NCBI GenBank assembly: GCA_963733035.1
Contig: CAVTBU010000010.1
Coordinates: 96,001-160,000, forward strand
Direction: 5' to 3'
DNA length: 64,000 nucleotides
Origin: Pirellulales bacterium
GTDB lineage: Bacteria; Planctomycetota; Planctomycetia; Pirellulales; PALSA-1355
The position numbers were made by a program, and so were the translations under genes. Below, piece by piece: positions 37,165 to 54,879 of the stretch (the stretch's first letter is position 1; every line of letters starts with the position of its first letter). Below the pieces are notes generated by a model. That model saw only the letters and a list, made by a program, of their open reading frames with translations, was not told where the DNA came from and made no database searches.

Positions 37165-37409
37165 CTTTCTGCAGATGGTGTAGAGGCTTCAGGCCGCGCA
37201 TTCTAGCCCCTGCTCACAGCTCGGGCAACTTCGAGTGCGCTGAGGATGCGCGGTTCAGCGCACGGTGCACAACCTCGTCCACCGCAAAGAGTTGGCAAGA
37301 GCGCATGCGTGAGAGCCAGGAAAAGACGACGCGGGGGGGAGTGGCTGGTAGACGAAAGCAGCCGCTGGGACCTCGGGGGCTCGATTCAGCCCCGTGAGGT
37401 GCTGACCGC

Positions 37410-37508
37410 TCAGGTGCGGATGTCTTTCCGCTTCAGTCGACGCGCCTTGCTGTTGGCGGGCCGCTTGCCGTGGTTGGCTTTCTTCAACTTGCGATGGGGT
37501 TTGGCCAT
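37410..37508 (-). CDS. Small basic protein, bL37-like 50S ribosomal protein (32 aa)
   Basis: MAKPHRKLKKANHGKRPANSKARRLKRKDIRT; KANHGKRP matches the core of mycobacterial bL37; below the ORF-track size cutoff. Confidence 0.72.
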   Translation of the reverse strand: MAKPHRKLKKANHGKRPANSKARRLKRKDIRT

Positions 37509-37802
37509 GAGTGCATTCTCGTACGGAGCAACCGGGAAACGCTCTATTATAGAAATCCCGTCGGAAGTTGCTAGGCGTGCCCTCGGCGAAACCGGAATTC
37601 GGGCTGTCAACCAGGTTGGCATCGACTGCTGGCACCGACCTACCGTCATTTTGGGTCCCGGGCAACGCGGATTGACCGAGTTGGGGGTTTTCGGTACAAG
37701 TCCCGCCACTTTTCCCGTGCCCGGCGCACTTTTGCGGGGGCCGAGCAGCGTACTCATTTCGCCCTGCGCGGCAAGAATTGTCGCGGTTCGAAGGTTCCAC
37801 GG

Positions 37803-39215
37803 ATGGACACTGTCAATCAGGTGACGGCTCGCGCTGCCGAGCTGTTTAAAGCGATGAACCCCACCGCGCGGCTGCTGGCTGCGCTGTCGGCGGCTCTGAT
37901 CGTGGTGAGCCTGATCTGGCTGTTTGGCCGGCACTTGGAGCCGAGCGAAGTTTACCTGATGGGGGGCCAACCGTTTTCTCCCGCCCAGCTGCGGCACATG
38001 GAAAGCGCTCTCGGTCAGGCGGGCCTCGGCGACTATGAAGTCGAAGGTACGCGGATGCGCGTGCCGCAAGGGCAACAGGCAAAATACATGGCTGCCCTGG
38101 CCGAGGCCGGCGCGCTACCGGCCGACTTTGGCGAGTATCTGCAAAAGGCCGTCAATACCAGCAGCTTTATGCTCTCCGGCCCGCGGCAAGAGGCTCAACT
38201 CAAAGTCGCCATCCAGAGTGAATTGCAGGGGGTGATCAACAACTTCCATGGCATCGAGCGCTCGTCCGTGCAGATTGCCGAAGAGACCAGCCAGGGATTT
38301 CCCCGCACGAAAACTGTTACCGCCTCGGTCGGCGTCCAGCCCAACGGCAAGCAGAAGCTCGACGAACGAACCGTTTCGGCCATCCGTTGGATCGTGGCCA
38401 GCGCCTGGGGCGGGCTCAAGCCCGAGAGTGTGACGGTTGTCGACTGGAGCAGCTCGCGGCTGTTTGCCGGCCCGCTCGACGGCAACGGCCCGGCCGCGGG
38501 TGCCTACGCGGACAACAAGAAGCAACTCGAACTCGATTGGGAAGAGAAGATTGTCCGGTTACTCGGAATCGCCGGTGCCGTCGTTACGGCCAATGTCGAA
38601 CTGAGCGACGATGGACATGCACCGCGTCAGGTCTCGGTGTCGGTCGCCGTCCCGCAAGCCTACTTTGAAGCCGTGTGGCAAGAGCAGTACGGCGCGCCGG
38701 CCGGCAAACGACCGTTGAAGCTCGATCCGGCGGCCTTCGCCCAACTCCAACAGAGCGAGAGCGAACGAATCAAGCAGGCGATCGTCCCTCTGTTGGTGAC
38801 GGCCGATTCGGCGGTGGATCGAGATTCGCTGGTCGCCGTGAGCACGATTTACGCCGCAGCCGCGCCAGCCGCGGCACAACCCGGCTACCAACAGGTGGCA
38901 CTCGCCTGGCTGGCCGAGAACTGGCGAGCGGTCGGAGTGGGCGTTTTGATTCTGGTCGGATTGGTGATGTTGCGATCTGCGTTCGGCGCGGCCGATCCAA
39001 CGCCTGCGGTGCAAAACGAGTCGCCGGACGGCAATCAGCAGTCGCTAGTACTTGTGACGGACGATGAACACGAGCCATCGTCGACAGGCGGTGCGCCGAT
39101 TCCGCCGCCGCACATTCCTGCCGAGGCGCGGCGGGCCGAGCTGGCCGAAATGATTCGCCAGGATCCGGAGGCCGCCGCAAGCGTGCTTCGAACCTGGCTA
39201 GGCAACGCGAGCTAA
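37803..39215 (+). CDS. fliF: Flagellar MS-ring protein FliF, shortened (beta-collar apparently absent)
   Basis: TM1, ring-building motifs (MRVPQGQQAKYMAALAEAGALP; TASVGV; GLKPESVTVVD), TM2, C-terminal IRQDPEAAASVLRTWL; first gene before fliG-fliH-fliI. Confidence 0.8.
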   Translation: MDTVNQVTARAAELFKAMNPTARLLAALSAALIVVSLIWLFGRHLEPSEVYLMGGQPFSPAQLRHMESALGQAGLGDYEVEGTRMRVPQGQQAKYMAALAEAGALPADFGEYLQKAVNTSSFMLSGPRQEAQLKVAIQSELQGVINNFHGIERSSVQIAEETSQGFPRTKTVTASVGVQPNGKQKLDERTVSAIRWIVASAWGGLKPESVTVVDWSSSRLFAGPLDGNGPAAGAYADNKKQLELDWEEKIVRLLGIAGAVVTANVELSDDGHAPRQVSVSVAVPQAYFEAVWQEQYGAPAGKRPLKLDPAAFAQLQQSESERIKQAIVPLLVTADSAVDRDSLVAVSTIYAAAAPAAAQPGYQQVALAWLAENWRAVGVGVLILVGLVMLRSAFGAADPTPAVQNESPDGNQQSLVLVTDDEHEPSSTGGAPIPPPHIPAEARRAELAEMIRQDPEAAASVLRTWLGNAS

Positions 39216-39218
39216 CCC

Positions 39219-40208
39219 ATGACGACGACAGAGCGCAACGTCCGCAAAGCGGCCATCTTGCTGGCCTGCCTCGACGACGAGCATGCTGAAACGCTGTTGC
39301 GCCAAATGTCGCCGGCGCAAGACCATGTGTTGCGTCAAGCCGTGGAACTTCTGGGCGAGATTGACCGGGCGGAACAGGAAGACGTGATCGAGGAGTTTTT
39401 CCGCGTCGGGCTCTTGATACCGGATTCTGACCTGGCCGGTATTGAACTCGATGCGCAGCTACCGCACACACTGACGCTTGGTATCACGGAGGCCAGTACG
39501 ACCGGGGCCACGCCGTTTCGCTTCCTGCATGAAGCCCCCCCGCATAAGCTCGTGCCGTTTTTGGAGCGTGAGCATCCGCAAACAGTGGCGGTTGTCGTGT
39601 CTCACCTGCCAGCCGATCGCGCCGCCGAAATCCTGGCGCATCTGCCCGGCGAGTTGCAGATCGACGTGGCCCGCCGGCTGGTCGACCTTGAGGAGACGGA
39701 TCCCGAGGTTTTGCAGGAAGTCGAACGGGGGCTTGAGTCGTGGTTGTGCTCACAAATTCACGGTGATCGTCCCAAGCGAGACGGCGTGTCGGCGCTGGCA
39801 AACATCCTGAGCGCCGCCGACCCTCAGGCACGACATCACATACTGTCGAACCTTGCCCGGCATGACCGGCGGCTGGCCGAAAAGTTGGAAGCACCGGCCG
39901 CGCCTCCGCTTTCGTTTGCGGATTTAGAGTGCATGGATTCGGCGTCGCTGGCCGTTGTTTTGCATCACGCCGAACGCGAGTTGTTGGTATTAGCTTTGGC
40001 CGGCGCCGGCCCCGAATTCTGCGAGCGAGCGCAGAGCCTGTTGGGTGGCCAGGGGATGGCGATACGACAGGCTCTACGTCATCTGGGGCCGACACGGCTC
40101 AGCGACGTCGAGGAAGCCCAGCGTCAATTGGCCGAACTGGCTCGATATCTGGAACAACGTGGCGAAATCGTGCCCGAGGTGCGTGGGCGATTGAGCCTGG
40201 CAATTTAA
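39219..40208 (+). CDS. fliG: Divergent FliG-family protein
   Basis: RKAAILL, PFRFL, EHPQTVAVVVSHL, DGVSALANIL, LGPTRLSDVEEAQ. Confidence 0.88.
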   Translation: MTTTERNVRKAAILLACLDDEHAETLLRQMSPAQDHVLRQAVELLGEIDRAEQEDVIEEFFRVGLLIPDSDLAGIELDAQLPHTLTLGITEASTTGATPFRFLHEAPPHKLVPFLEREHPQTVAVVVSHLPADRAAEILAHLPGELQIDVARRLVDLEETDPEVLQEVERGLESWLCSQIHGDRPKRDGVSALANILSAADPQARHHILSNLARHDRRLAEKLEAPAAPPLSFADLECMDSASLAVVLHHAERELLVLALAGAGPEFCERAQSLLGGQGMAIRQALRHLGPTRLSDVEEAQRQLAELARYLEQRGEIVPEVRGRLSLAI

Positions 40209-40237: not shown

Positions 40238-40891
40238 ATGCCACGCGTACTGAAAGCTCCACCCACATCCGAGGCGATGGAGTTTTTGACATTTGCCTTT
40301 GACGACTTGGAGGAGTCGGCTCGTTCGCAACTCGAAGCGGCGCGTCGCGAAGCCGCCGAACTGCTGACCGCGGCTCGCCAGGAAGCCGAGCAATTGCGCC
40401 GACAAGCCGAGGAGGACGGTCGCGCTGCGGCCGGCCAGGCGATCGAACAAATCATTGCCGAGCGGGTTGCCACGCAAGTGGCAACGACCATGCCGGCGCT
40501 CGATCAGGCGGTTGCCGACCTGCGCGCCGCCAAAGCCGACTGTCTGGTTCGTTGGGAAGAAGCCGCGCTAGGCGTGGCCACGGCGATTGCCGCTCGCGTC
40601 ATTCGCCGTGAGGTCTCCCATTCGCCGGAAATCAGTTTGTCGCTCGTTCGTGAGTCGCTCGAACTGGCGGCCGGGAGCACCGATTTGCAGTTGCGCATGC
40701 ACCCCGACGACCTGGCAGTGCTCGGGGCGGAGGTTGAAGATCTGCTTGGTCAACTTGTGCGTAGTGGCGAGAGGGCGCTCGTGGCGGATGCCACGATCAC
40801 GCGCGGGGGCTGCCGCGTTGACACGCGTTCGGGCAGCATCGACCAGCAATTCGAGGCCCAATTGGCCCGCATCGAACAGGAACTGCGTTAG
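40238..40891 (+). CDS. fliH: FliH/SctL ATPase stator stalk
   Basis: Ala/Glu-rich helix, LRMHPDDL, DATITRGGCRVDTRSGSID. Confidence 0.88.
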   Translation: MPRVLKAPPTSEAMEFLTFAFDDLEESARSQLEAARREAAELLTAARQEAEQLRRQAEEDGRAAAGQAIEQIIAERVATQVATTMPALDQAVADLRAAKADCLVRWEEAALGVATAIAARVIRREVSHSPEISLSLVRESLELAAGSTDLQLRMHPDDLAVLGAEVEDLLGQLVRSGERALVADATITRGGCRVDTRSGSIDQQFEAQLARIEQELR

Positions 40892-40917: not shown

Positions 40918-42243
40918 ATGCCACTGCTGCTCGACAACCTCCACGCTCGGCTGCGCGAAATGGTGCCGGCCGACTTGCGCGGCCGCATCGTGCGTACGTC
41001 GGGGTTGACGGCCGCCGTCGCCGGGTTTCCGGCACCAGTCGGATCGCTGGTAAGCATCGAGCGGCACTCGGGCGAGCCGCTATCTGCGGAAGTGATCGGG
41101 TTTGTCGATGATTTGACCCTGGTTTCGTTGCTCGACCGAGCGCAAGGTCTCAGGCACGGTGACCACGTTAGGTTGGTGAAAACCTCGCGATGGATTCGCG
41201 TCGGTGACGGATTGTTGGGCCGCGTGATCGACGCCCGCGGAAAGTGCATCGACGGTTCGCCACAGCCGGCACTCGAGCACCGCGCTCCGCTCGAGCGAAC
41301 CGCACCGTCGGCCATCTGCCGCCCGCGTATCGATGAGTCCATTTCGACGGGTGTGCGCGCGATCGACGGCTTGCTCACCTGCGGCAAAGGTCAACGGCTG
41401 GGCATCTTTGCCGGATCGGGCGTCGGCAAGAGCATGACACTCGGCATGATCGCTCGATATACGACGGCGGATGTGAACGTCGTGGCGCTCGTCGGCGAGC
41501 GCGGCCGAGAGGTGAACGAGTTCCTGCAGCGCGACCTGGGGCCTGGGCTGGCCAAGAGCGTTGTCGTGGTAGCCACCAGCGATGAACCGGCATTGGCGCG
41601 CGTGCAGGCGGCGCTGGTTGCAACCACAGTGGCCGAATTCTTTCGCGATCAGGGAAACGACGTGCTGTTGATGATGGATTCGCTCACGCGGCTGGCGCTC
41701 GCGCAACGCGAGATTGGTCTGGCCGCCGGCGAGCCGCCCACGACGCGCGGTTTCCCACCGTCGACATTCGCGCTATTGCCGCGGTTGCTCGAACGGGCCG
41801 GCCGCACGGAGCAGGGGAGTATCACCGGGCTTTACTCGGTGCTCGTCGAAGGGGACGACCCCCAGGAACCCATCGCCGACACGACGCGCGGTTTGCTCGA
41901 TGGGCACATCTGGTTGTCGCGAGCGCTGGCCGCGGCGGGGCACTATCCTGCGATCGACGTGCTGGAAAGCGTGAGCCGCTCGATGCATGACGTTGTCGAC
42001 GACGATCATCGGCAAGCCGCCCTGGAAGTCCGCCGTCTGTTGGCCACCTATCGTCAACATGAGGACCTGATCGCCGTCGGGGCTTATCGCCAGGGAACCA
42101 ACGCCAACGTCGATCGGGCGATCGCACTGCGAGACGAGATTCACACCTTGCTTCAGCAGCGCGTGGATCAGCGCGCAAGCGTGTCGCAGGCCAAGGAAGC
42201 TCTCGTTCGGCTGGCCGCCCGGGCTACGCAGGATGCGCCATGA
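40918..42243 (+). CDS. fliI: FliI/SctN export ATPase
   Basis: GQRLGIFAGSGVGKS, GERGREV, LLMMDSLTR, GEPPTTRGFPP, LDGHIWLSR. Confidence 0.95.
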   Translation: MPLLLDNLHARLREMVPADLRGRIVRTSGLTAAVAGFPAPVGSLVSIERHSGEPLSAEVIGFVDDLTLVSLLDRAQGLRHGDHVRLVKTSRWIRVGDGLLGRVIDARGKCIDGSPQPALEHRAPLERTAPSAICRPRIDESISTGVRAIDGLLTCGKGQRLGIFAGSGVGKSMTLGMIARYTTADVNVVALVGERGREVNEFLQRDLGPGLAKSVVVVATSDEPALARVQAALVATTVAEFFRDQGNDVLLMMDSLTRLALAQREIGLAAGEPPTTRGFPPSTFALLPRLLERAGRTEQGSITGLYSVLVEGDDPQEPIADTTRGLLDGHIWLSRALAAAGHYPAIDVLESVSRSMHDVVDDDHRQAALEVRRLLATYRQHEDLIAVGAYRQGTNANVDRAIALRDEIHTLLQQRVDQRASVSQAKEALVRLAARATQDAP

Positions 42244-42710
42244 AACCGTTTGCCTTTCGTCTCGACGGCCTACTGAAATTGCGCATCGCCCAGCGCGACG
42301 TCGAGCGCGTCGACCTGGCGGCCGCACTTGCCGAGCAGGTTCGGCTGACCGCTCTGTGCCATGCGCTGCAAACGCAATTGTCGCGCCTGCTAGCCGAACA
42401 GCGTACCGCGCGGATTGCCGGTACCGTGCTGCTTGAGTCGCTGGTCCGATTAGAGCACTTCGCAGCAGCCACACGGAGTAAGCTCGCCGCGGCCAACGGA
42501 GCTCGGATCGCGGCAGAGCAGCGAGTGGCCCATTGTCAGCATGCGGTGGCAGCAGCCGAACGCGACGTTGACGTGCTCGAAAAGCTGCGCGAGCAAGCGC
42601 AGGTTCGCCATCAAAGGGAACTCGCACGCCGACAGGTCAAGCGGCTCGACGAGGTTGCCGGGCAATGTTTTGTCCGTGCGGCGGTGCGGTCATCCGGCGG
42701 ACCACGCTAG
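42240..42710 (+). CDS. fliJ: Flagellar export protein FliJ
   Basis: FAFRLDGLLKLR N-terminus, LEKLRE, KRLDE; ATGA overlap with fliI. Confidence 0.8.
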   Translation: MKPFAFRLDGLLKLRIAQRDVERVDLAAALAEQVRLTALCHALQTQLSRLLAEQRTARIAGTVLLESLVRLEHFAAATRSKLAAANGARIAAEQRVAHCQHAVAAAERDVDVLEKLREQAQVRHQRELARRQVKRLDEVAGQCFVRAAVRSSGGPR

Positions 42711-42960
42711 CATCACGGTGCTGGAGCTAGTCCACTGGCCGGCGGTATTTCGCGATCTGACCTTGATCGAAAATTGCTTTTCGAGGACAAACCCGCCCGA
42801 CTCTGGCCCAGGCACATCTCGCCAGAGTTGTCGTTCGACAACACATATCCTTTTGCAAATCGTCCACGCGTATCTGGCGCATTGCCGCCGCGCGCTTTGC
42901 GGGTGATTCGATCCGCTGGCCGCACGCCGACATGTGGCAGCCGTGGCAGGATTCAATAGC

Positions 42961-43209
42961 ATGGTCGATCGCATGCCATCGCCGCGCGGCGACAGGAATT
43001 TAAGAATTGAATTGGGACGGGCGCGGCTGCCGTGGCAGGAGTTTACGAAGTTAGCCAAGGGGAGCGTGGTTTCGCTGGAGACGCTGGTGGACGAGCCCGT
43101 CGATATCGTCGTGGGTGGCCGGCTGGTGGCCAAAGGCGAGGTGCTCGTGCTTGACGGTTGCTTTTGCATTCGCGTTACGCAGTTGCTCGGTGGCAAGGGA
43201 GCCGCTTGA
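42961..43209 (+). CDS. fliN: Short FliN-like (SpoA domain) protein; start uncertain
   Basis: LRIELGRARL..LAKGSVVSL..DEPVDIVVGGRLVAKGEVLVLDGCFCIRV. Confidence 0.8.
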   Translation: MVDRMPSPRGDRNLRIELGRARLPWQEFTKLAKGSVVSLETLVDEPVDIVVGGRLVAKGEVLVLDGCFCIRVTQLLGGKGAA

Positions 43210-43261: not shown

Positions 43262-44017
43262 ATGCCACGCGTCGCAAGCTTGCTGATGTTAGGGCTGGTG
43301 CTAACGGCATTCGCAGCTGGTGGTGCCGCCGGACAGAGTCCCGCTCAAAGCGGCGGGCAGGTCCGTTGGGGCGACCGGCCGGTGAGCCCACCGCAAATCC
43401 CATGGACGGGCGGTACCGCGGTTGCCCGGCCCGTCGAACCACCGCGGCTCTTGCCCGCGGGATATCAATCGCCGCCCGGAGGGGCGAGTAATACGGCGGC
43501 ATATCGCCGCCAGGTGCGCACGGTGGGCGGTCAACAGCCGCTGCCGCTGCCGCCTCAGCCAGGCGGCGTGGCGGCGCCAGGAGCCAAACCGCAGCTGCCT
43601 CCGCTGGTCACAGGCGCGGCCAGCCTGGGCATCGTGTTAGGGCTGTTTTTATTGGTGGTGTGGAGCGTACGGCGCGGGATGCCCAGGGGCTCGGGCATAC
43701 TACCCAGCGGGGCCGTTGAAGTGCTGGGACGCGCGCCGATCGCGGGCCGACAAAACGTGCACCTGGTGCGCTGCGGCAACAAGATCGTGTTGCTGAGCAT
43801 TACGGCGACCAGTGTTGAGACGCTGACCGAGATTTCGGACCCCGACGAGGTCGATCGACTGCGCGAACTTTGTCGCCAAACTTCCGCGCCGGCCACGGCG
43901 TGGCAGCATCTGATGGGCCGACTTGGCAACCTGGGGCAAGGCGTCGACATTCAGGAAAGGCGGCCGGACCAAATCGATTTCGGCCACCTCGAAGTCGGCA
44001 CTCAAACTCGGGCTTGA
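43262..44017 (+). CDS. fliO: FliO with Pro-rich N-terminal extension
   Basis: SLGIVLGLFLLVVW TM followed by VEVLGRAPIAGRQNVHLVRCGNKIVLL..LTEISDPDEV. Confidence 0.8.
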   Translation: MPRVASLLMLGLVLTAFAAGGAAGQSPAQSGGQVRWGDRPVSPPQIPWTGGTAVARPVEPPRLLPAGYQSPPGGASNTAAYRRQVRTVGGQQPLPLPPQPGGVAAPGAKPQLPPLVTGAASLGIVLGLFLLVVWSVRRGMPRGSGILPSGAVEVLGRAPIAGRQNVHLVRCGNKIVLLSITATSVETLTEISDPDEVDRLRELCRQTSAPATAWQHLMGRLGNLGQGVDIQERRPDQIDFGHLEVGTQTRA

Positions 44018-44025
44018 GGAGCGGC

Positions 44026-45105
44026 ATGACCATGAGCCAATTCTTACGACCGAAGAAAAGCGGCTGGCCGTTGGCCGGCGGGCTAGTCGCGCTTTGTGTT
44101 TTCGCATTGGTGTTGTGCTGGGCGCATTGCGCGGTGCGCGCGATGCCGATGGCGCAAGAGCCTGCCGCGGTGGAAGCCCCGCCGGTGGTTGCGCCTGTGT
44201 CGACGGCGGCTGCCGCGATGCCGAGTCCGCCGGGAGTGCCACCGATCAAGCCCGTTCCGCTGGAAACGAAAACGGACCAAGCGCACGGGGGCGAATCGGA
44301 GCTGCTGTCGCCACCAGGCACCGATCTTTCGGCCCCACAACCGATTGAAAACGCCGCTCAGCTACCGACGGATCCGCCGTCCGCTCAAGATGCCCACCAA
44401 TTTTCCTTGCCGGGCGGCCTTGGCGGACCGGAGCAGTGGACGAGCCCCGAGGGAATTTCCTCGGCCCTGCAAACGCTGGCGCTGTTGACAGTCGTCAGCC
44501 TGGCACCGGCGGTGCTGATGATGACTACTTGTTTCGTGCGAATTGCCATCGTCCTGGGGCTGTTGCGACAGGCGCTTGGCACGCAGCAGCTGCCTTCGAA
44601 CCAGGTTGTGACGTCGCTGGCGCTCTTCATGTCGCTCCTGATTATGGCGCCGGTTTGGAACCAGGTTTATGAAGACGCCGTGGTGCCGTACGCCGCGCAC
44701 GAGATCTCGCTGCACCAGGCCTGGGATACGGGCATCAAGCCGGTTCGCGGATTCATGAGCGCGCAGATCGAGCGGACAGGCAATAGCGGCGACGTGTGGT
44801 TGTTCTACAAATACTTGCCGGCCGACACGCCGGCACCGTCGAGCTACAACGACGTGCCGCTGACGGTACTTATGCCGGCCTTCATGCTCAGCGAACTGAA
44901 GACGGCGTTTCTGATCGGCTTTCAGGTGTTCCTGCCGTTTCTCGTGATCGACCTGGTCGTTTCGAGCGTGACGATTTCGATGGGCATGTTCATGGTTCCG
45001 CCCGTGCTCGTCTCGTTGCCGATGAAGTTGCTGCTATTCGTACTGGTCGATGGCTGGCACCTGGTCGTGGGGATGTTGATGGATAGCTTCCAACTTGTTG
45101 CCTGA
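44026..45105 (+). CDS. fliP: Export gate protein FliP with long Pro-rich N-terminus
   Basis: GAGGAG then ATG 44026; MMTTCFVRI..LRQALGTQQLPSNQV, PAFMLSELKTAF, MGMFMVPP, KLLLFVLVDGW. Confidence 0.95.
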   Translation: MTMSQFLRPKKSGWPLAGGLVALCVFALVLCWAHCAVRAMPMAQEPAAVEAPPVVAPVSTAAAAMPSPPGVPPIKPVPLETKTDQAHGGESELLSPPGTDLSAPQPIENAAQLPTDPPSAQDAHQFSLPGGLGGPEQWTSPEGISSALQTLALLTVVSLAPAVLMMTTCFVRIAIVLGLLRQALGTQQLPSNQVVTSLALFMSLLIMAPVWNQVYEDAVVPYAAHEISLHQAWDTGIKPVRGFMSAQIERTGNSGDVWLFYKYLPADTPAPSSYNDVPLTVLMPAFMLSELKTAFLIGFQVFLPFLVIDLVVSSVTISMGMFMVPPVLVSLPMKLLLFVLVDGWHLVVGMLMDSFQLVA

Positions 45106-45116
45106 GGTTCGCGCGA

Positions 45117-45383
45117 ATGAATCCCCAAGATGCCGTCGATTTGGGTCGCCAGGCCACCAACATAGCCTTGATGTTGGGAGGTCCGGTGCTGCTTTCGGCG
45201 CTGGTCGTGGGACTGATCGTGGGTTTGCTACAGGCGGCCACTGGCGTGCAGGAACAAACCGTGTCGTTCGTACCCAAGCTGGTGGCCGTGGTGGTTGCAC
45301 TCAGCCTGATGCTGCCCTGGCTGATCGAGCAGATGGTGCAGTATTCGCATGACGTGATTACGAACATTCCGCTGTCGCTCTAG
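45117..45383 (+). CDS. fliQ: Export gate protein FliQ
   Basis: 88 aa; GLLQAATGVQEQTVSFVPKL. Confidence 0.93.
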   Translation: MNPQDAVDLGRQATNIALMLGGPVLLSALVVGLIVGLLQAATGVQEQTVSFVPKLVAVVVALSLMLPWLIEQMVQYSHDVITNIPLSL

Positions 45384-45394
45384 GTGCTGGCCCG

Positions 45395-46174
45395 ATGTTA
45401 CCGCTGGTCGAATATCTACACGACCACCTGGCCGTGATTGCCCTGGTACTGACTCGCGTCGCGGCGCTCGTGTTCGTGGCGCCGCTGTTGGGGCCGTTCG
45501 CCGTTTCGTGGCGCATTCGGGCGGGCCTGACGGTGGCCGTGACGGCCCTGGTGGTGCCGCTGGAGATCGAACGAGCTACGAGCCCGCCGGAGAATCTCGG
45601 GCAGTTTTTGGTGCTGGCCGGCGGCGAGGCACTGGTCGGGCTGATGTTGGGACTCGGCGTGCGGATTTTGTTTTCCAGCATGCAGGTCGCCGGACAATTG
45701 ATCAGTCAGATGAGCGGCCTGCAGTTGGCCGAAGTGTTCAGTCCGGCAATGGGGTCCAGCGTGCCGGTATTTTCGCAGTTGTTGCTGTTGGTGAGCACGG
45801 CGGTGTTCTTTCTGATCGGCGGTCATCGGCAAATGATCGAGGCCTTGCTTGACAGTTTCGCCTGGTTGCCCTCCGGGCAGGCGGCCGCCTCTCGTTCCGC
45901 ACTCGACGCGGTTACGGCCCTCGTTTCGCAGAGCTTCATCCTGGGGCTGAGGATCGCCGCGCCGGCGGTCGTGGCGCTGCTTTTGTCCACGTTGATCGTG
46001 GGCTTTATCAGCCGCACGCTGCCGCAATTGAACAGCCTGTCGCTGGGGTTCGGCATCAACGCCTTGGTGGCGGTGGCGGCCGTTGGGCTGTCGCTGGGTG
46101 GCGCTTGCTGGATCTTTCAGGAAACGCTTGGCCCCGTGCTGCAAACGGCGCTTGAGTCGTTACATCCGCAATAA
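45395..46174 (+). CDS. fliR: Export gate protein FliR
   Basis: EALVGLMLG, AGQLISQMSGL, IGGH, GFISRTLPQLN. Confidence 0.92.
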   Translation: MLPLVEYLHDHLAVIALVLTRVAALVFVAPLLGPFAVSWRIRAGLTVAVTALVVPLEIERATSPPENLGQFLVLAGGEALVGLMLGLGVRILFSSMQVAGQLISQMSGLQLAEVFSPAMGSSVPVFSQLLLLVSTAVFFLIGGHRQMIEALLDSFAWLPSGQAAASRSALDAVTALVSQSFILGLRIAAPAVVALLLSTLIVGFISRTLPQLNSLSLGFGINALVAVAAVGLSLGGACWIFQETLGPVLQTALESLHPQ

Positions 46175-46201: not shown

Positions 46202-47068
46202 ATGGCCGATGACGCCGATAAAACGCAGGCTCCCACAGTGCGCCGCCGTCAACAGGCACGCGAGGCGGGGCAAGTCGCGCACAGCCAAGATCTCAGTTCG
46301 GCACTCCTGCTGTTGGGCTGTTTCACGCTGGTGGTCACCACCGGCGGTGCGCTGGTTGCGTTCCTGATGGAACTGCTGCAATCAAGCCTGGGAGGTAGTG
46401 CGTGGCGGGCCGGGCTCGAATCGAACGCCACGCGCGAAACGTTTCTCGCGCAGTGGCACATGCTGGTGGCGTCGCTCGGCGAGCGGTTGCTGCCGGTGTT
46501 GGCGGGGGCGACCCTGTTGGCGCTTGGCGTCCATTGGTTGCAAACCGGCTTCATTTTTTTGCCGGCCCGGGCAATGCCGGACTTTTCACGGGTCAATCCG
46601 GCGAAGGGTTTCGGACGCATGTGGTCGGGAGAGAATTTTTCGCGGCTGCTGTTTGGCCTGTTCAAGGTGGTGGTGGTGGCGGCCGTTGGTCTGGCGGGCG
46701 CGTGGAGCCGCCGCAATGAGATCGCGGCGCTCGCCGGAGTCGACCTACCGGAGTTGGCATCCGACGCTTGGGAAATCTGCCTTTGGTCGTGCGTCGAAAT
46801 GGGCGGCGCGCTGCTTGCGCTATCGGCGCTCGACTATCTCTACCAGCGCGCGAGCCTGGAACGGTCTCTGCAGATGACGCCGCAGGAAGTTCGCGAGGAA
46901 ATGCGCGAGCTGCAAGGCGATCCGCAAATCGCCGCCCGGCGCCGGCAAATCGCTCGTCGCACAGGGGGGCAGCAGGATAGCGGCGCGAAAGGGGAAACGC
47001 ATCCCACAGATCGCCGGGCGATCGCGACTTCGCCGGCCCAGATCGGCGCCGTCGATTCGATTCGTTAG
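46202..47068 (+). CDS. flhB: FlhB, C-terminally truncated (no NPTH/cytoplasmic switch domain)
   Basis: DKTQAPTVRRRQQAREAGQVAHSQDL, PDFSRVNPAKGF, LQMTPQEVREEMRELQGDPQ; 288 aa, stops about 50 aa after GDP. Confidence 0.88.
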   Translation: MADDADKTQAPTVRRRQQAREAGQVAHSQDLSSALLLLGCFTLVVTTGGALVAFLMELLQSSLGGSAWRAGLESNATRETFLAQWHMLVASLGERLLPVLAGATLLALGVHWLQTGFIFLPARAMPDFSRVNPAKGFGRMWSGENFSRLLFGLFKVVVVAAVGLAGAWSRRNEIAALAGVDLPELASDAWEICLWSCVEMGGALLALSALDYLYQRASLERSLQMTPQEVREEMRELQGDPQIAARRRQIARRTGGQQDSGAKGETHPTDRRAIATSPAQIGAVDSIR

Positions 47069-48245: not shown

Positions 48246-48480
48246 GAGTTTCTCCGCGGTTGCATGCCGTTCGGCACCGGCTCGTCCGTCAAAGACACGT
48301 AGTCGAGCGGTCGCCGCCGGCAAGCGCGCCGGCTCAAGGGGCGATGCGTCCTCCGCGGACCCGCGCGTCGGACCTCCGCCGTCTGCCGGATGGAATGTTG
48401 CCAGCGTCAAAGATAACAGTCTCCGTTCGAGAGGGCCACCGCCGCAGGGGCGTCTTGCCCGAGGCCGTTTTTCATCGTTT

Positions 48481-49002
48481 TTATTGCAAATCGCCCGCGC
48501 TGGCGTCGCTTCGCCGTGCCACGTGCTGCAGTGCTGCCTGCATGGCCATCATCACCTGGTGCCCTGGCTTCTTGCCGACCACCCGTTCCAGCGGTACACC
48601 CCGCGGTGAGAGGAATTGGATCGTGGGATAGCCGGTCACCTGAAATTGCCGGCAGACTTCCGGTTCGACGTCGGCATCGATCAGGACACAGACAAATTGG
48701 TTGGAAAGACTAACGACCTGCGGGTGCGTAAAGGCTTCCTCGGCCATCTGCCGGCAATACTCGCACCATTTGGCCGTGAAGTACAACAGCATGGGCTTCG
48801 ATTGCCGTACACTTTCGGCGTAGCCCTGGCGGTATCCGACGACGAACTGCAGTTCGCCGTGCGCCAAATAACTGGCTCCCACGGCGCGGCCATCTGCCGG
48901 ACGTTGTTCGACGGCGCTGTCTGGTGTCTCGACACCAAGCTCACAGCCGTACTTGAGGGCCAGCAGTGCTAGCAAACAAGCCCCGAACGCAAAGTATTTC
49001 AT
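48481..49002 (-). CDS. Exported thioredoxin-family protein
   Basis: N-terminal anchor; KPMLLYFTAKWCEYC; VTGYPT cis-Pro motif. Confidence 0.85.
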   Translation of the reverse strand: MKYFAFGACLLALLALKYGCELGVETPDSAVEQRPADGRAVGASYLAHGELQFVVGYRQGYAESVRQSKPMLLYFTAKWCEYCRQMAEEAFTHPQVVSLSNQFVCVLIDADVEPEVCRQFQVTGYPTIQFLSPRGVPLERVVGKKPGHQVMMAMQAALQHVARRSDASAGDLQ

Positions 49003-49499: not shown

Positions 49500-51593
49500 A
49501 TGGCTACCGCTGCCGTGCCACGCGTGCCCCGTTCGCTAGCGCAGGTGCAAGACCTCGTCTTGCCCGTCGCTGCGATTGCTAGCGTGCTGGTGATTCTGGT
49601 GCCGCTGCCGACACCGGTGATGGACTTACTGCTAGCGGCCAACATTGCAGTGGCCGTGATCGTTCTGTTGACGACGATCTACGTCCGCACGCCGCTGGAG
49701 TTCAGCGTGTTTCCGACGTTGCTTTTGGCCACCACGCTCTCGCGGTTGGTGCTCAACGTGGCCACCACGCGGCTGATTCTGAGCGACGCGGGTGATCGCG
49801 GCCTGATGGCGGCCGGCGGTGTGGTGCGCAGTTTCGGCGAGTTTGTGGCAGGCGACAAAATCGTCGTGGGGCTGGTGATCTTCGCGATTATCGTCGTGAT
49901 TCAGTTCGTGGTGATCACGAAAGGCGCCACCCGCATCAGCGAAGTTGCGGCCCGGTTTGCACTGGATGGCATGCCGGGGCGGCAAATGGCCATCGATGCG
50001 GATCTGGCGGCCGGCAACATCAGCGAGAAACAAGCCCAGACGCGTCGTCAGGAAGTGACCCAACAGGCCGACTTCTTCGGCGCCATGGACGGTGCCAGCA
50101 AATTCGTCCGCGGCGACGCAATCGCGGGCATCATCATCACGCTGATCAACATCCTGGGCGGACTGGTTATCGGCATTGTCGAATATCGGATGGGCATTGG
50201 CGAAGCCGCCGATTTGTTCACCCGCCTGACCATCGGCGATGGTTTGGTCAGTCAGATTCCCGCGTTCTTGATTTCGCTGGCTGCCGGCTTATTGGTGACG
50301 CGCAGTTCCTCGAGCGTCAACCTGCCGGTTCAATTTCTGAACCAACTGTTTTCACGCCCGCAAACGCTGGCCGTGACGGGCGTCTTTCTGGGTCTGTTAA
50401 TTTTCACGAAACTGCCGGCGGTGCCGCTGGTGGGATTGGGAGGCGGTTGTGTCGGACTGGCCATGCTACTCACCCGTCGCCAGCACGAAGCCGAAGCATT
50501 GGCCCGACAACAGGCGGCGGTGCCCCAGAAGCTGCGCGATCAGCGCGTCGAGGACTACCTGGCCGTTGACCCGATGGAAATCGAGATCGGTGCCGGCTTG
50601 ATTCGGCTGGCCGACCCGAAGCGTGGCGGAGATCTGCTCGACAGGATTCAACGTTCGCGCCAGGCGATTGCGGCCGAGATGGGGCTGATCATGCCCAAGG
50701 TTCGAATCCGCGACAATCTGCGGCTCGGCGCGCGGCAATATCGCATCAAGATCGCCGACCTGCCGGTTGCCGAAGGCGAATTGCAGCCCGCTATGTTGCT
50801 GGCCGTCGATTCCGGCAATGCCAGCGGAAACATCAGCGGACTGGCGACGCGCGATCCGGCGCACGGCATGCCCGCCACCTGGATCGAGCCGTCGGCGCGA
50901 CAACAGGCCGAGTCACAAGGCTATCACGTTGCCGAACCGATTAGCGTATTGGTTAACCACCTGACCGAGACCGTGCGGTCGCACGGCGACGAAATACTGA
51001 CGCGGGACGCGACTCGGCACCTGGTCGATGAGCTCAAGAAGACGTCGCCTACGGTGGTTGACGAGCTGATTCCCGACCAGATGAAGCTGGCCGAGGTGCA
51101 GCAGGTGTTGCAGCTCTTGCTGCGCGAGCAAGTGCCCATCCGGCAACTCGCGAGCATCCTCGAAGCGTTGGGCGAAGAGGTCTCGCGCACCAAGGATCCG
51201 ATCGCGCTTAGCGAACGAGTGCGGCACCGGCTGGCCCGGGCCATTTCGACGCGGTATCGCGACAAGCATGGACGGCTGGCCGTTGTCACGCTCGACCCGG
51301 CACTGGAGGAGCGAATTCGGGCCGCGACACAGCGCGTCGGCGGAACGCTTACGGTTTCGCTCTCACCGCAAGTCGTCGAGACTCTTTGTCAAAGGTTAGC
51401 CGGTGAGTTGGCGCGGCATGCCGGCTCCGGACGAACAGCCATCGTGTTGGTCAGCCCGGCGATACGACCGGCGCTCAAACAAATCACGATGGCCGCGCTG
51501 CCGCGTTTGGTCGTGCTGAGCTACGACGACGTGACACGCGACACGCAATTGGAATCCTTGGGATTGGTCGAATTGGAATCCGTCGACGAATGA
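49500..51593 (+). CDS. flhA: Export gate protein FlhA
   Basis: RISEVAARFALDGMPGRQMAIDADL, FFGAMDGASKFVRGDA, TIGDGLVSQIP; full cytoplasmic domain; 697 aa. Confidence 0.96.
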   Translation: MATAAVPRVPRSLAQVQDLVLPVAAIASVLVILVPLPTPVMDLLLAANIAVAVIVLLTTIYVRTPLEFSVFPTLLLATTLSRLVLNVATTRLILSDAGDRGLMAAGGVVRSFGEFVAGDKIVVGLVIFAIIVVIQFVVITKGATRISEVAARFALDGMPGRQMAIDADLAAGNISEKQAQTRRQEVTQQADFFGAMDGASKFVRGDAIAGIIITLINILGGLVIGIVEYRMGIGEAADLFTRLTIGDGLVSQIPAFLISLAAGLLVTRSSSSVNLPVQFLNQLFSRPQTLAVTGVFLGLLIFTKLPAVPLVGLGGGCVGLAMLLTRRQHEAEALARQQAAVPQKLRDQRVEDYLAVDPMEIEIGAGLIRLADPKRGGDLLDRIQRSRQAIAAEMGLIMPKVRIRDNLRLGARQYRIKIADLPVAEGELQPAMLLAVDSGNASGNISGLATRDPAHGMPATWIEPSARQQAESQGYHVAEPISVLVNHLTETVRSHGDEILTRDATRHLVDELKKTSPTVVDELIPDQMKLAEVQQVLQLLLREQVPIRQLASILEALGEEVSRTKDPIALSERVRHRLARAISTRYRDKHGRLAVVTLDPALEERIRAATQRVGGTLTVSLSPQVVETLCQRLAGELARHAGSGRTAIVLVSPAIRPALKQITMAALPRLVVLSYDDVTRDTQLESLGLVELESVDE

Positions 51594-51638: not shown

Positions 51639-52775
51639 ATGAACGTCAAGACTTATCGCGCCAAAACGATGCAGGAAGCACTGGCCCTGGTGCGCAACGA
51701 CCTGGGGTCCAAAGCCTCCGTATTGCGCACTCGCGAGATTCGTCCGCGGGGCCTGTCGCGTTTGTGGAGCGCGGTTGGCATGATCGAAGTCGTTGCCTCG
51801 GCGAATGTGTCCGTACCGAGTCGACTGCCAAGCCGGCAGCCAATTATGTCGCCCGTTGCCGTGCCGGCAACACACGCGGGCCTGGATCTTTCGGCGGCAT
51901 CTTCGGAAGTGCGATTGCCACAAGGTTCTGCGGCACGTTCGGGCGGAGACAAGCACGAGCCGTTGGGCGTCCTCTCGCAGGTTCTGGCCGAGCTGCTGGC
52001 CACGGGACTCGACGAGTCTTATGCCCGAGAGCTGATCACGCGCGTTCGTCGTTTGCACGGCGAAGCGATGGTGGCCGACTCGGCAACGATGCGGCAGTTG
52101 TTGGCTGCCGCCATTGAAAAGGAGATTCGGGTCGCGGGCCCGATCTCGACGACGCCCGGGCAGAGACGTTTGGTGGCTCTGGTTGGCCCAACCGGCGTGG
52201 GCAAGACGACGACGCTGGCCAAGTTGGCGGCACACTATCGGGTGTTTGAGAATCGCCGCATCGGTTTGATCACCTGCGACACGTATCGCGTGGCCGCCGT
52301 CGAGCAACTGCGGACGTATGCCGACATTATCGACGTGCCGCTGGAAATCGCCTCCACGCCGCGTGAAGTCAAACAGGCCGTGGCGCGGATGTCGGACGTT
52401 GACCTGGTGCTGATGGATACCGCCGGTCGCAGTCCGCACGACGCGGCAAGAATTCAGCAGCTCAACCTACTCCTGTCCGAGGCAGCGCCCGACGAAGTTC
52501 ACCTGGTCCTTTCCAGCGCGGCTAATGCGGACGGCCTATGCGAGACGATCGAACGATTCGCACCTGCTCGTACGACCGCGCTGCTGCTAACCAAACTGGA
52601 CGAAGTCGCATCGTTGGGAAGCGTGTTCAACGTAATTCGACGTCGGCACATACCGCTTAGCTACCTGACGTATGGTCAGGACGTGCCGGCCGATATTGTC
52701 GTGGCCGATCCCGCACCGCTGGCGCGGGCGGTGGTCGGATTGGTCCGGCTGGCCGGACATCAACCTCCCCGTTAG
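51639..52775 (+). CDS. flhF: SRP-type GTPase FlhF
   Basis: [51 protein letters not shown]. Confidence 0.93.
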   Translation: MNVKTYRAKTMQEALALVRNDLGSKASVLRTREIRPRGLSRLWSAVGMIEVVASANVSVPSRLPSRQPIMSPVAVPATHAGLDLSAASSEVRLPQGSAARSGGDKHEPLGVLSQVLAELLATGLDESYARELITRVRRLHGEAMVADSATMRQLLAAAIEKEIRVAGPISTTPGQRRLVALVGPTGVGKTTTLAKLAAHYRVFENRRIGLITCDTYRVAAVEQLRTYADIIDVPLEIASTPREVKQAVARMSDVDLVLMDTAGRSPHDAARIQQLNLLLSEAAPDEVHLVLSSAANADGLCETIERFAPARTTALLLTKLDEVASLGSVFNVIRRRHIPLSYLTYGQDVPADIVVADPAPLARAVVGLVRLAGHQPPR

Positions 52776-52784
52776 CACAAAACT

Positions 52785-53618
52785 ATGTTTCGCGATCAAG
52801 CCACCGAACTCCGAGAACTAGTTCAGCACCGCACGCCCGCGGGCGGTGCCTCAGGAGAGATTGCGCCGCTGGTCGTGGTCGGCGGTGGAAAAGGGGGCGT
52901 CGGAACGACAACCATCGCGGTGAATCTGGCGGTTGCTCTTGCGCGCGAAGGACGCCGCGCCGTGTTGGTCGATGCCGACCTGGAGCACGGCGGGCAAATA
53001 CACTTCACGTCTCAGCGCGACCCGGGCAACATCCTGGACGTGCTCAGCGGACGGCGCGGCTTGCACGAAGTCCTCGCGCGCGGACCAGCGGGCGTGCAAG
53101 CGGTGACGGGCGCCTGGTCCGCAACCGAACCCAACGCGTGCTCCGCCGCGCGGCAGGCCAGATTCGTCGATCAACTCAAGTCGCTCGCGCCGCACGCAGA
53201 AGTGATTGTGGTCGACGCCGGCAACAGCCGCACGCCGTTTGTGCGCTTGTTCTGGCACGCGGCCGATGTGATTTGGGCGGTGACCACGCCCGAAGATGCC
53301 GCGGTTTTGCAATGCTACGCGGCCATCAAGGCCAATTTAGCCGGATGCAGTCGGCCGCCGCTACAAACGCTGGTCAATCGAATCGACGAACGGCTGGCTG
53401 GCGACGTGCACGCGCGGCTGGCCGAGGCCTGTCACCGATTTCTCGCCGTGCGCGTCGACGATGCTGGTAGCGCCGCAGTTTGCGAGCCGCGGGACGAGGT
53501 CTTATTTCACACCGGCTCGTTGGCGGAGCATGCCTTCGACCGTGCGGCCGAACGGTTATGGGCTTACCTGCAACGGGGTGACCGCGGCCTGTTGGACCGC
53601 GATCGGGGAGTTGCGTGA
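52785..53618 (+). CDS. flhG: FlhG/MinD-like ATPase with degenerate Walker A
   Basis: DQATELR activator helix, GKGGVGTTT, LVDADL, VTTPE; lies between flhF and fliA. Confidence 0.8.
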   Translation: MFRDQATELRELVQHRTPAGGASGEIAPLVVVGGGKGGVGTTTIAVNLAVALAREGRRAVLVDADLEHGGQIHFTSQRDPGNILDVLSGRRGLHEVLARGPAGVQAVTGAWSATEPNACSAARQARFVDQLKSLAPHAEVIVVDAGNSRTPFVRLFWHAADVIWAVTTPEDAAVLQCYAAIKANLAGCSRPPLQTLVNRIDERLAGDVHARLAEACHRFLAVRVDDAGSAAVCEPRDEVLFHTGSLAEHAFDRAAERLWAYLQRGDRGLLDRDRGVA

Positions 53619-54087: not shown

Positions 54088-54879
54088 ATGGTAATGGCGA
54101 TGACCACGATGGCGCCCGAGGACGTGGCGCAGATTTGGCAACAGTTCAAGCAGGATATGGAGAACCAGGAGCTCCGTAACCGGCTGGTGGAAATCTATCT
54201 GCCGCTGGTCAAGTACAACGGCGAGCGGATCTGGTCGCGGTTGCCTGAGGGCGTGGAACTGGACGACCTGATTTCGGCCGGTGTGTTCGGCCTGATGGAC
54301 GCCATCGACGCCTTCGATCTATCGCGCGGCGTCAAGTTCGAAACCTATTGCGTGCCGCGGATCCGCGGTGCCATGCTCGACGAACTGCGGACGATGGACT
54401 GGGTGCCGCGTCTGGTCCGCTCGAAAGCCAGCAAGCTCAACGAGGCAATCAAGACGCAGGAAGCCCGTCTGGGCCGCGCTCCCAGCGAAATCGAGTTGGC
54501 CGAGCACATGGGCATCTCGGTTCCTGAGCTCGAAAAGATGGTGATGGAGGCCAACGCCGTCAACCTGATCAGCCTGAACAAGAAGTGGTATGAGACCGAC
54601 AGCTACAAGGACGTTCGCGAGATCGACATCCTCGAGGACAAAAAGGGAGAAGATCCGACGCGACGGATCCAGAAGCACGACCTGATGCGGCTGGTTACCA
54701 AAGGGCTCAACCGCAACGAACGGCTGATTATCATCCTCTACTACTACGAAGAGCTGACGATGAAAGAGATCGGCGCCACGCTCGATCTCTCGGAAAGCCG
54801 CGTCAGCCAGATGCACAGCTCGATCGTCCAGCGTCTGCAAGGCCAACTCCGTCGGCGCAGGCCGGAGTTTGGAACCTAG
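54088..54879 (+). CDS. fliA: FliA/WhiG-family sigma factor (sigma28)
   Basis: DDLISAGVFGLMDAID, KFETYCVPRIRGAMLDELRTMDWVPR, LTMKEIGATLDLSESRVSQMH. Confidence 0.96.
   Translation: MVMAMTTMAPEDVAQIWQQFKQDMENQELRNRLVEIYLPLVKYNGERIWSRLPEGVELDDLISAGVFGLMDAIDAFDLSRGVKFETYCVPRIRGAMLDELRTMDWVPRLVRSKASKLNEAIKTQEARLGRAPSEIELAEHMGISVPELEKMVMEANAVNLISLNKKWYETDSYKDVREIDILEDKKGEDPTRRIQKHDLMRLVTKGLNRNERLIIILYYYEELTMKEIGATLDLSESRVSQMHSSIVQRLQGQLRRRRPEFGT

Follow-up and report, generated by a model that had tools for sequence, protein, structure and literature searches.

The window analyzed here is a stretch of 64,000 nucleotides from a Pirellulales bacterium (contig CAVTBU010000010.1, positions 96,001 to 160,000 of the forward strand), in which fliF, the gene for the protein of the membrane-supramembrane (MS) ring of the flagellar basal body, heads a cluster of flagellar genes. 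Judged by its gene content, this cluster is a basal body reduced to the inner core, with MS ring, C-ring proteins, export gate, ATPase complex, FlhF/FlhG and sigma-28, and, by the sequence searches described below, FliE, rod, hook, hook-length ruler, hook cap, stator and flagellin are no longer encoded. The reading we prefer, at a probability of about 0.6, is that of a rod-less MS/C ring that houses a still-working type III export engine, the beta-collar of its FliF having eroded after the rod was lost.

The genome that holds the window (G000) is 92.28% complete. It was examined together with its relatives in a set of 41 genomes, G000 included, and FliF was matched in 40 of these. All relatives are metagenome-assembled genomes (MAGs), and their flagellar state was judged from genes alone, not from observed motility. 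The FliF alignment comprised 31 intact proteins, that of the window among them; left out were four genomes with FliF in several frames (G004, G018, G022, G024), the 341-residue form of G009, two FliFs at contig ends (G017, G019), two with N-terminal likeness only (G027, G038) and one genome without a match (G033). A second set held 80 more FliF loci from species-representative MAGs assigned to Pirellulales, Planctomycetia or 'Thermoguttaceae', 76 of them with FliF in one frame.

The FliF protein and its missing collar

In Salmonella FliF, ring-building motif (RBM) 3 is described as two parts, RBM3a (residues 228-270) and RBM3b (382-438), on either side of a beta-collar of 111 residues (271-381) that accommodates the proximal rod (PMC11739650). 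The collar columns of the alignment contain 4 residues of the window protein and 85-92 residues of 18 relatives, which bears out the original prediction of a FliF that lost its beta-collar in frame. The turn of about five residues that had been predicted in its place was also recovered, since S268-D-D-G-H272 joins strands 260-267 and 274-284 in an AlphaFold model. The peptide around this junction, AVVTANVELSDDGHAPRQVSVSVAVPQAY, corresponds to FliF residues 259-287 (nucleotides 38577-38663, within 38560-38670). The 470-residue protein further keeps, as had been claimed, both transmembrane (TM) segments, modelled as helices 20-43 and 374-395, and a conserved FliG-binding tail, in which P455, A458, L462 and W465 are invariant across the 31 FliFs.

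The AlphaFold model was built on the alignment of 31 relatives and is a monomer, silent on ring formation. Its mean predicted local distance difference test score (pLDDT) was 78, with 86-93 over residues 251-290. The modelled RBM3 consists of helix 230-254, strand 260-267, the turn, strand 274-284, helices 285-296 and 309-330, and strand 344-349. Superposition on MS-ring structures, a check suggested along with the original prediction, showed that this RBM3 fits the Salmonella core with the insert absent: residues 229-351 matched Salmonella FliF 228-437 (6sd3_Q) with a Z of 8.9 and a root mean square deviation (rmsd) of 2.4 Å over 93 aligned residues, 123 model residues thereby covering 210 of Salmonella. 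RBM1-2 (residues 48-223) matched Salmonella FliF 50-222 (8wkq_UI; Z 16.3, rmsd 3.5 Å, 152 aligned). The long-form FliF of the rod-bearing relative G012 was used as a control, and its RBM3 (235-443) matched Salmonella 229-438 (6sd3_Q; Z 9.2, rmsd 2.3 Å, 99 aligned), with extra strands 279-285 and 354-360 flanking a low-confidence stretch at 288-351. Compared with G012, whose RBM3 has the Salmonella span, that of the window is ~86 residues short, and as modelled it is an ordinary ring-building motif that has just a tight hairpin at the insert site.

The only Pfam family to match the protein was YscJ_FliF (PF01514; residues 59-218, 80 bits), so the RBM1/RBM2 feature of FliF is present. YscJ_FliF_C (PF08345) had no match anywhere in the G000 genome even at E <= 1; it covers the collar region in rod-bearing G011 (residues 261-408, 35.9 bits) and reached 20.8 bits, below the cut-off, in G012. 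When the protein was compared by phmmer with solved structures, residues 28-272 and 313-467 aligned with Vibrio FliF 59-301 and 416-577, and from the gaps between these alignments 40 residues of the window FliF stand against 114 of Vibrio. The FliF equivalog TIGR00206 gave 54.1 bits against a cut-off of 129.75, residues 3-255 corresponding to positions 4-257 of its 555. In descent the protein is nested among Pirellulales FliFs, and its gene heads a fliFGHI operon. It is FliF by descent, context and most of its domains; the collar is absent, and the curated score is not reached.

Shortened collars were found in 13 of the 31 intact FliFs. The collar columns contain 4 residues in G000, G001, G002, G003, G007 and G016, 10-12 in G006, G020, G014 and G013, 21 in G029, 27 in G010 and 37 in G023, as opposed to 85-92 in the other 18 genomes. 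Of the collar, G023 retains just the two strands closest to the S-ring domain, G029 has a short hairpin left, and from these remnants the hairpins look trimmed from the tip downward. The entire RBM3 is missing, with RBM1-RBM2, TM2 and tail kept, from the FliF of G009 (341 residues; L013/L091) and, in a separate lineage, from those of L146, L156 and L147 (374-436 residues). For the second set, the collar span was taken as the residues between window positions 267 and 277, which is 9 in the window and 88-98 in long forms. In the relative L130, a MAG contig with an open reading frame (ORF) from position 1501, a collar-less FliF (span 19) and the FliG domains M and C form one fusion protein of 668 residues, and neither FliE nor FlgC was found upstream of the fusion.

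Axial genes, the order of losses and the FlhB switch

Matches to the FliE family, to Flg_bb_rod (the N-terminal family of rod and hook proteins) and to Flagellin_N were found in 19, 21 and 19 of the 41 genomes, respectively. None of the three families had a match in any of the 13 short-collar genomes, whose completeness is 100% (G001, G003), 99% (G013, G016), 97% (G002), 96% (G014, G023), 95% (G029), 92% (G000), 90% (G006), 74% (G020), 72% (G007) and 56% (G010). At least two of the families matched in 16 of the 18 long-collar genomes, the exceptions being G031, with none, and G005, with a weak FliE match only. The question raised earlier, whether rod-bearing relatives share the short loop, has a clear answer: the collar is long in all 16 with an intact FliF and short in 0 of the 21 such genomes. 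For the second set we looked for FliE or FlgC within 1.5 kb 5' of FliF, absence there not being equivalent to absence from the genome. Loci with a span of 50 residues or fewer had either gene upstream in 0 cases and neither in 12, with 1 untestable; at spans of 51-80 the counts were 0, 2 and 0, and at 85 or more they were 57, 1 and 3. No lineage among the genomes and loci examined combines a short collar with axial genes, and at the level of sequence collar loss tracks axial-gene loss.

In G000 itself no match was obtained for FliE (PF02049), Flg_bb_rod (PF00460), Flg_bbr_C (PF06429, E <= 1), Flagellin_N (PF00669), FliS (PF02561, E <= 0.1), MotB_plug or MCPsignal; there were five MotA_ExbB-family matches, none in a flagellar context among those examined. 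A tblastn search of the whole G000 genome (E <= 0.01) with the products of the G012 cluster found nothing for the FlgB-like ORF, FlgC, FliE, FliK, FlgD, FlgE, FlbD, MotA, MotB or four unnamed ORFs, and FliF, FliG and FliN alone found matches. The original prediction had proposed a ring that houses the export gate and is unable to hold a rod, and this agrees with a genome in which the export genes are kept and rod genes are absent. Two genomes from other families of the order (G027, G038) have no matches to FliE, rod, flagellin or FliM and keep a FliF-like protein alike in its RBM1-2 part, a short FlhB-like protein and adjacent fliA-flgM.

The gene order in G012 runs from an ORF at the flgB position through flgC, fliE, fliF-G-H-I-J, an unknown ORF, fliK, flgD, flgE, flbD, another unknown ORF, motA, motB and two further unknown ORFs to fliN, fliO and fliP. 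By comparison of the two sequences, flgBC-fliE and fliK-flgD-flgE-flbD-motAB are cut out of the window operon. In G000, G001, G003, G016, G013 and G009 alike fliJ adjoins fliN and fabZ precedes fliF, on the opposite strand in the window, and the whole order is likewise shared. Neither synteny nor a genome-wide tblastn search with FlgC and FliE of a relative revealed a remnant of flgC or fliE in the spacer between fabZ and fliF.

A maximum-likelihood tree of FliF calculated without the collar columns placed long-collar G005 and twelve shortened forms in the clade of the window (support 100/100), with G029 elsewhere, and the rod-bearing G019 also lies inside the clade of the window (support 100, branching unresolved). 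On a FastTree of the second-set rows, at least 5 changes account for collar shortening and 5 for the loss of upstream fliE. These are gene trees of related genomes and not a species tree. Five independent pairs differ in collar, with fliE concordant in 3, discordant in 0 and the same in 2 (p = 0.25); the last two pairs, in which the nearest long- or mid-collar kin (L087; L137, L148) are already without upstream fliE, are uninformative on the correlation and instead bear on the order of events. G005, G031, L148, L137 and L087 have no axial genes or upstream fliE, yet they keep 71-91 residues of collar span. As G005 and G031 are axial-less with a full-length collar, the axial genes would have been lost first, and as L087, L137 and L148 are fliE-less upstream, the sequence of axial loss and then collar trimming would have been followed more than once. 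The collar of G005/G031 is also extra diverged, with a collar-to-rest identity ratio of 0.48-0.51 where rod-bearing pairs have a median of 0.68, and no longer matches PF08345. Causation thus probably reverses the phrase 'cannot hold a rod', the axial genes having gone first and the collar having been trimmed after. We are highly confident that the cluster is a rod-less remnant that lost its collar after its rod.

In the course of events that we propose, loss of the rod genes would have left the beta-collar, an insert between the first two RBM3 strands that sheathes the proximal rod, without a partner. In-frame deletions would then have shortened it from the tip down, to 37, 27, 21, 10-12 and finally 4 residues in different relatives, without affecting the S-ring fold, RBM1-2, either TM helix or the FliG-binding tail, and the C-terminal domain of FlhB would have been lost in parallel.

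The FlhB of the window corresponds to profile positions 2-239 of 335 and stops 34 residues past the match, with unrelated sequence after the conserved 'GDPQ..ARRR' linker; it scored 158.7 with TIGR00328 (cut-off 349.25), and no second FlhB piece was found elsewhere in the G000 genome. The C-terminal autocleaving switch domain is missing from G000-G003, G007, G016, G013, G014, G009 and G029, broken in G020 and ambiguous in G006, where contigs end. Where the cleavage site was readable, its NPTH-type motif, TNPTEL in this order, is intact in 7 of 7 rod-bearing genomes (G004, G012, G015, G019, G025, G026, G035) and altered in each of the 7 axial-less relatives in which the domain persists (G005 ANPAEP; G010 ASPEGV; G017 ADKA-I; G020 ADSPKA; G023 SSPEGL; G024 ADSSRA; G031 TNQAEL). 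Because there are no early subunits and no FliK ruler, the switch would have no job, and it may have decayed and then been deleted in several lineages. In three rod-bearing genomes of genus g2 (G004, G018, G022; 1-20 contigs, 61-91% complete), FliF, FlhB and FliA are split over several frames, and these splits are probably indel errors of long-read assemblies, not pseudogenes.

Function of the remnant and competing explanations

Selection was measured between the species pair G002 and G003 from the window's genus, with a synonymous divergence (dS) of ~0.06-0.2, because dS between genera is ~1 or more and so saturated. The ratio of non-synonymous to synonymous divergence (dN/dS) was 0.042 for FliQ, 0.047 for FlhA (45 synonymous, 6 non-synonymous differences), 0.057 for FliI, 0.081 for FliP, 0.124 for FliG, 0.125 for FlhG, 0.130 for FliR, 0.171 for FlhB, 0.257 for FliO, 0.259 for FliJ, 0.263 for FliH, 0.311 for FliN and 0.312 for FliF. 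The neighbouring genes gave 0.016 (FabZ), 0.027 (sulfotransferase) and 0.216 (thioredoxin), and long-form FliF pairs, at saturated dS, gave 0.13-0.22. Measured in this way, the engine is constrained like housekeeping genes and the rings less so, yet far from neutral. Since selection keeps its genes, the remnant would still do something, and we consider it likely to be functional.

We lean slightly towards protein export as this function. A type III translocase in its MS/C-ring housing would move some cargo over the inner membrane, and a FliE-less Salmonella apparatus has been reported to deliver FliE-Bla to the periplasm in a FliP- and FliF-dependent manner (PMC8546590). FlgM is the leading candidate for the cargo, an assignment we make tentatively. 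In Salmonella, FlgM is removed by export through the flagellar apparatus. FlgM of G000 is a 99-residue ORF on contig 7 (411466-411582, minus strand; L160:1447-1746), alone beside a Fur-like regulator, and scored 41.3 with TIGR03824 (cut-off 40.75). FlgM is present in 39 of the 41 relatives, its N-terminus MQI(Y/H)GPSQLHGAQ hardly varies whether or not a genome has rod genes, and its dN/dS is 0.03-0.15 within the window's genus. In 38 of 41 genomes of the order, whatever their flagellar state, FliA shows 79-95% identity, as against 27-64% for FliF of the same genomes; FliA is conserved even in genomes without axial genes and in two without FliM, with a dN/dS of 0.02. This conservation across flagellar states suggests that sigma-28 may serve an essential, non-flagellar regulon. 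Export of FlgM would free the very highly conserved sigma-28, and if an order-wide non-flagellar regulon depends on that export, the engine could not be lost along with motility. With FlgM as the cargo, losing the early-substrate domain of FlhB would do no harm.

Several points weigh against a working export engine in a collar-less ring. In Salmonella the inter-subunit sheets of the collar stabilise the ring, and the ring of collar-less FliF is a putative one. We know of no demonstration of FlgM export in this phylum, and FlgM remains a candidate. A genome-wide scan with a sigma-28 promoter consensus gave just 2 strict matches and 556 relaxed ones, counts that do not delineate a regulon. Hook protein secretion is reported to be 8-fold down in a fliE null mutant (PMC8546590), the FliP/FliR gate to be closed until FliE assembles (10.1101/2025.02.07.637169), and the early rod and hook subunits to dock at the FlhB C-domain (PMC8983047). 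Because studied systems need both FliE and the FlhB C-domain, an apparatus without them might export poorly or not at all, and because the gate opens on FliE assembly, efficient export here would need a changed gate. Other points concern erosion and sampling. The dN/dS of FliF is the highest of the cluster, and FliM of G000, at 44.7 bits compared with ~220 in rod-bearing relatives, is the most diverged of 39 FliMs. The GTPase domain of FlhF is kept in the window and gone in G001-G003, where the first 89-99 residues only are left (G001, L068 15252-15554; G002, L187; G003, L067 14879-15154), and this ongoing erosion is matched by the continuing erosion seen as RBM3 loss in G009 and L146/L147/L156. 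No RNA run is among the public holders of the stretch. The comparative signal is limited, since it comes from related genomes and a gene tree with too few independent pairs for significance.

The remnant might instead serve as a scaffold or landmark without export, its MS/C ring, together with FlhF and FlhG, marking a cell pole or the cell cycle in a planctomycete that divides by budding. Such a role would fit the retention of FlhF and FlhG in G000, G016, G013 and G009, the kept link between FliF and FliG, which is a covalent fusion in L130, and the absence of the FlhB C-domain and FliE that efficient export in studied systems needs. We nonetheless consider it unlikely, because constraint is strongest on the engine proteins FlhA, FliI, FliQ and FliP (0.04-0.08) and weakest on FliF and FliN (0.31), and because G001-G003 have lost the FlhF GTPase domain while their export genes are intact.

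Neutral decay would make the cluster a dying relic that no longer assembles anything functional, the collar deletion being just one of its many lesions. A relic would not be expected to keep about 15 cluster genes open in G000, in an order shared with G001, G003, G016, G013 and G009, among genera whose FliFs are just 39-53% identical; nor would it show unsaturated dN/dS values of 0.04-0.17 for FlhA, FliI, FliP, FliQ, FliR, FliG and FlhB, like those of housekeeping neighbours, or FliF deletions that are every one in frame and spare the domain boundaries. The losses are progressive and lineage-specific all the same, as the collar series and the absence of RBM3 from G009 and L146/L147/L156 illustrate; the FlhB C-domain first accumulated mutations and was later deleted, G001-G003 carry a truncated FlhF, and FliF, FlhB, FliM and FliN of G000 all fall below their NCBIfam equivalog cut-offs, which is a sign of erosion. 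The dN/dS of FliF and the lack of a listed RNA holder also suit a relic. On balance we judge neutral decay to be quite unlikely.

It is very improbable that the organism still builds a flagellum, with axial, stator and filament proteins too divergent or unassembled and another protein in place of the collar. G000 is not fully complete, and family and tblastn searches can miss very divergent proteins, but the same absences recur in 13 genomes, four of them 99-100% complete; the flgC-fliE and fliK...motB sites are closed up within the operon, Flg_bbr_C, MotB_plug, FliS and MCPsignal were not found either, and the same protein families are readily detected in other genomes of the same family.

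Seven public runs hold part of the stretch, all as Logan contigs and all from environmental metagenomes, mostly of soil. Pieces from X1-X3 (99+% alike) span just 37786-38181 and 38903-39300, and a contig from X5 (~94% alike, so a relative) covers 38125-38632 without inserted or skipped letters and ends 14-20 nt beyond the junction; under the 31-letter rule, no public contig among those runs bridges it. An assembly or binning artefact, by which ~260-300 nt were dropped from fliF as the original prediction had cautioned, can still be dismissed, because the reading frame is intact, the identical 4-residue junction occurs in five other assemblies (G001, G002, G003, G007, G016) with related short forms in seven more, and a gap that is in frame and common to independent assemblies is neither chance nor mis-assembly.

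Known systems and layout of the cluster

Compared with canonical FliF (Salmonella P15928 and Vibrio; 6SD3, 8WKQ, 8Z5V), the window protein has the same two TM helices, RBM1, RBM2, RBM3 core, tail and position at the head of a fliFGHIJ operon, and differs in having no insert between RBM3 strands 1 and 2 and no rod to hold. Planctomycetes belong to the same superphylum as the Chlamydiaceae. The Chlamydiaceae, with no flagellum and few flagellar genes, are reported to have a likewise reduced FliF of ~330 residues that is a FliF-FliG fusion (PMC4768692, Bergeron 2016), and the fusion of FliF with FliG (M, C) in L130 resembles it in this respect. Unlike that protein, the window FliF retains all three RBMs and is short of the insert alone, with FliG as a protein of its own.

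The RBM1-RBM2 model also superposes on SctJ (EscJ/PrgK) with a Z of 12-13, and the SctJ layout of RBM1-RBM2, TM helix and tail has been reached by G009 and L146/L147/L156. The window FliF differs from SctJ in having RBM3 and a FliG-binding tail; it scored 34.6 with the SctJ equivalog (cut-off 161.95) and is flagellar FliF by descent. A search of G000 for the injectisome parts SctJ, SctC and needle gave a best score of 97.2 for the SctC equivalog (cut-off 238.45), on another contig, and none for T3SS_needle_F. The window system does not qualify as an injectisome. In Myxococcales, reduced type III systems have been proposed as flagellum-injectisome intermediates (PMC3459982, Abby and Rocha 2012). 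They are described as having, like the window system, a conserved type III core with no motility parts or secretin, and are argued to be functional from their long conservation (PMC3459982); they fall within the non-flagellar branch, whereas the window system is an independent, recent derivative of a planctomycete flagellum, with FliG, FliM, FliN, FliO, FlhF and FlhG. SpoIIIAH and SpoIIIAG of the sporulation channel were among the structural matches of RBM2 and share just the RBM fold, in different machinery. The remnants in insect endosymbionts such as Buchnera have lost flagellin and motor genes and kept export apparatus and basal body, which have been suggested to serve in secretion. Rod and hook genes persist in these remnants, so a collar would still be of use there. 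The window, by contrast, is without the whole axial structure, and its FliF and FlhB are without the matching domains.

A literature search of partial journal coverage, supplements not covered, found no collar-less FliF and no rod-less flagellar cluster in Planctomycetes. The relatives amount to a natural deletion series, for which we met no mutagenesis equivalent in the literature consulted. In this series FliF can do without its beta-collar precisely where the rod is missing, while selection still acts on RBM1-3, the TM helices and the FliG tail, and this evolutionary evidence favours the collar being a socket for the rod, as structures suggest. A type III engine with MS and C rings would be selectable without a flagellum, FliE or the FlhB switch in apparently free-living bacteria, which bears on the old question of why non-motile bacteria keep flagellar export genes. 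The gene sets of the relatives are graded, from axial loss through motif decay to domain loss; they offer in FlgM a candidate cargo open to testing, and they directly parallel the transition proposed to lead from flagellum to injectisome. It is conceivable, if doubtful, that these planctomycetes replay the first step proposed for injectisome origin, with FliF moving towards the SctJ layout (at least five losses of the collar and at least two of the whole RBM3), FlhB shedding its switch, and cells 'addicted' to the engine through an essential, order-wide sigma-28 that is freed only by FlgM export. Because FliF, FlhB, FliM and FliN fall below equivalog cut-offs, annotation pipelines will under-call such proteins, and the genomes would be misclassified by motility predictors based on counts of export genes.

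The features of the cluster are collected in Table 1. The flagellar export apparatus proteins FliP, FliQ, FliR, FlhA, FliH, FliI and FliJ are all present as judged by Pfam matches.

Table 1. Positions of the flagellar genes, FliF segments and neighbouring features in the window
Feature	Position	Strand	Remarks
fabZ-fliF spacer	37165..37802	.	flgC and fliE sit here in rod-bearing relatives
fliF	37803..39215	+	470 aa; TM1, RBM1, RBM2, collar-less RBM3 (S-ring domain), TM2, FliG-binding tail
FliF TM1, residues 20-43	37860..37931	+	helix in model, hydrophobic
Collar junction, turn S268-D-D-G-H272	38604..38618	+	replaces the beta-collar insert of relatives; alignment and model
FliF TM2, residues 374-395	38922..38987	+	helix in model, hydrophobic
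FliF C-terminal helices, residues 440-467	39120..39203	+	conserved tail, binds FliG in studied flagella
fliG	39219..40208	+	329 aa; FliG_N, FliG_M, FliG_C
fliH	40238..40891	+	Pfam FliH
fliI, export ATPase	40918..42243	+	ATP-synt_ab, T3SS_ATPase_C
fliJ	42240..42710	+	Pfam FliJ, 35 bits
fliJ-fliN junction	42711..42933	.	223 nt; ~9 kb in G012
fliN	42934..43209	+	91 aa; FliMN_C; TIGR02480 70.5, cut-off 84.05
fliO	43262..44017	+	Pfam FliO
fliP	43870..45105	+	Pfam FliP residues 205-403; ORF from first possible start
fliQ	45117..45383	+	Bac_export_3
fliR	45395..46174	+	Bac_export_1
flhB	46202..47068	+	288 aa; transmembrane domain and linker only
sulfotransferase	47085-48410	-	between flhB and flhA
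thioredoxin-domain gene	48481-49242	-	between flhB and flhA
flhA	49500..51593	+	697 aa, full length; FHIPEP residues 29-682
flhF	51639..52775	+	378 aa; SRP54 GTPase domain; TIGR03499 201, cut-off 174
flhG-like MinD/ParA ATPase	52785..53618	+	CbiA, ParA, MipZ; place after flhF conserved
fliA (sigma-28)	54088..54879	+	TIGR02479 FliA_WhiG 264.8, cut-off 189.6

A 192-residue ORF in the fabZ-fliF spacer had no Pfam match. A scan for sigma-70 promoters and terminators 5' of fliF revealed nothing serving fliF, and one promoter-like site on the minus strand would serve fabZ. Relatives of FliP align only from about residue 134-188 on. FliN has a counterpart of 144 residues as an ORF in G012, and the part N-terminal to FliMN_C is missing from the window protein. 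The fliM gene lies elsewhere in G000 (contig 5, 1292089-1292625; L061:7961-8956) and encodes 331 residues with FliM and FliMN_C; it is alone among housekeeping genes, with an aldehyde dehydrogenase gene on one side and a thioredoxin-reductase-like gene on the other. The stator-facing charges of Thermotoga FliG are mostly absent from the window FliG (~39990-40140); we rejected this charge loss as a mark of the rod-less group because the rod-bearing Pirellulales examined are likewise mostly uncharged there. The sulfotransferase and thioredoxin-domain pair occupies the same site in G001, G003, G016 and G013, and in G009 the sulfotransferase gene only is found there.

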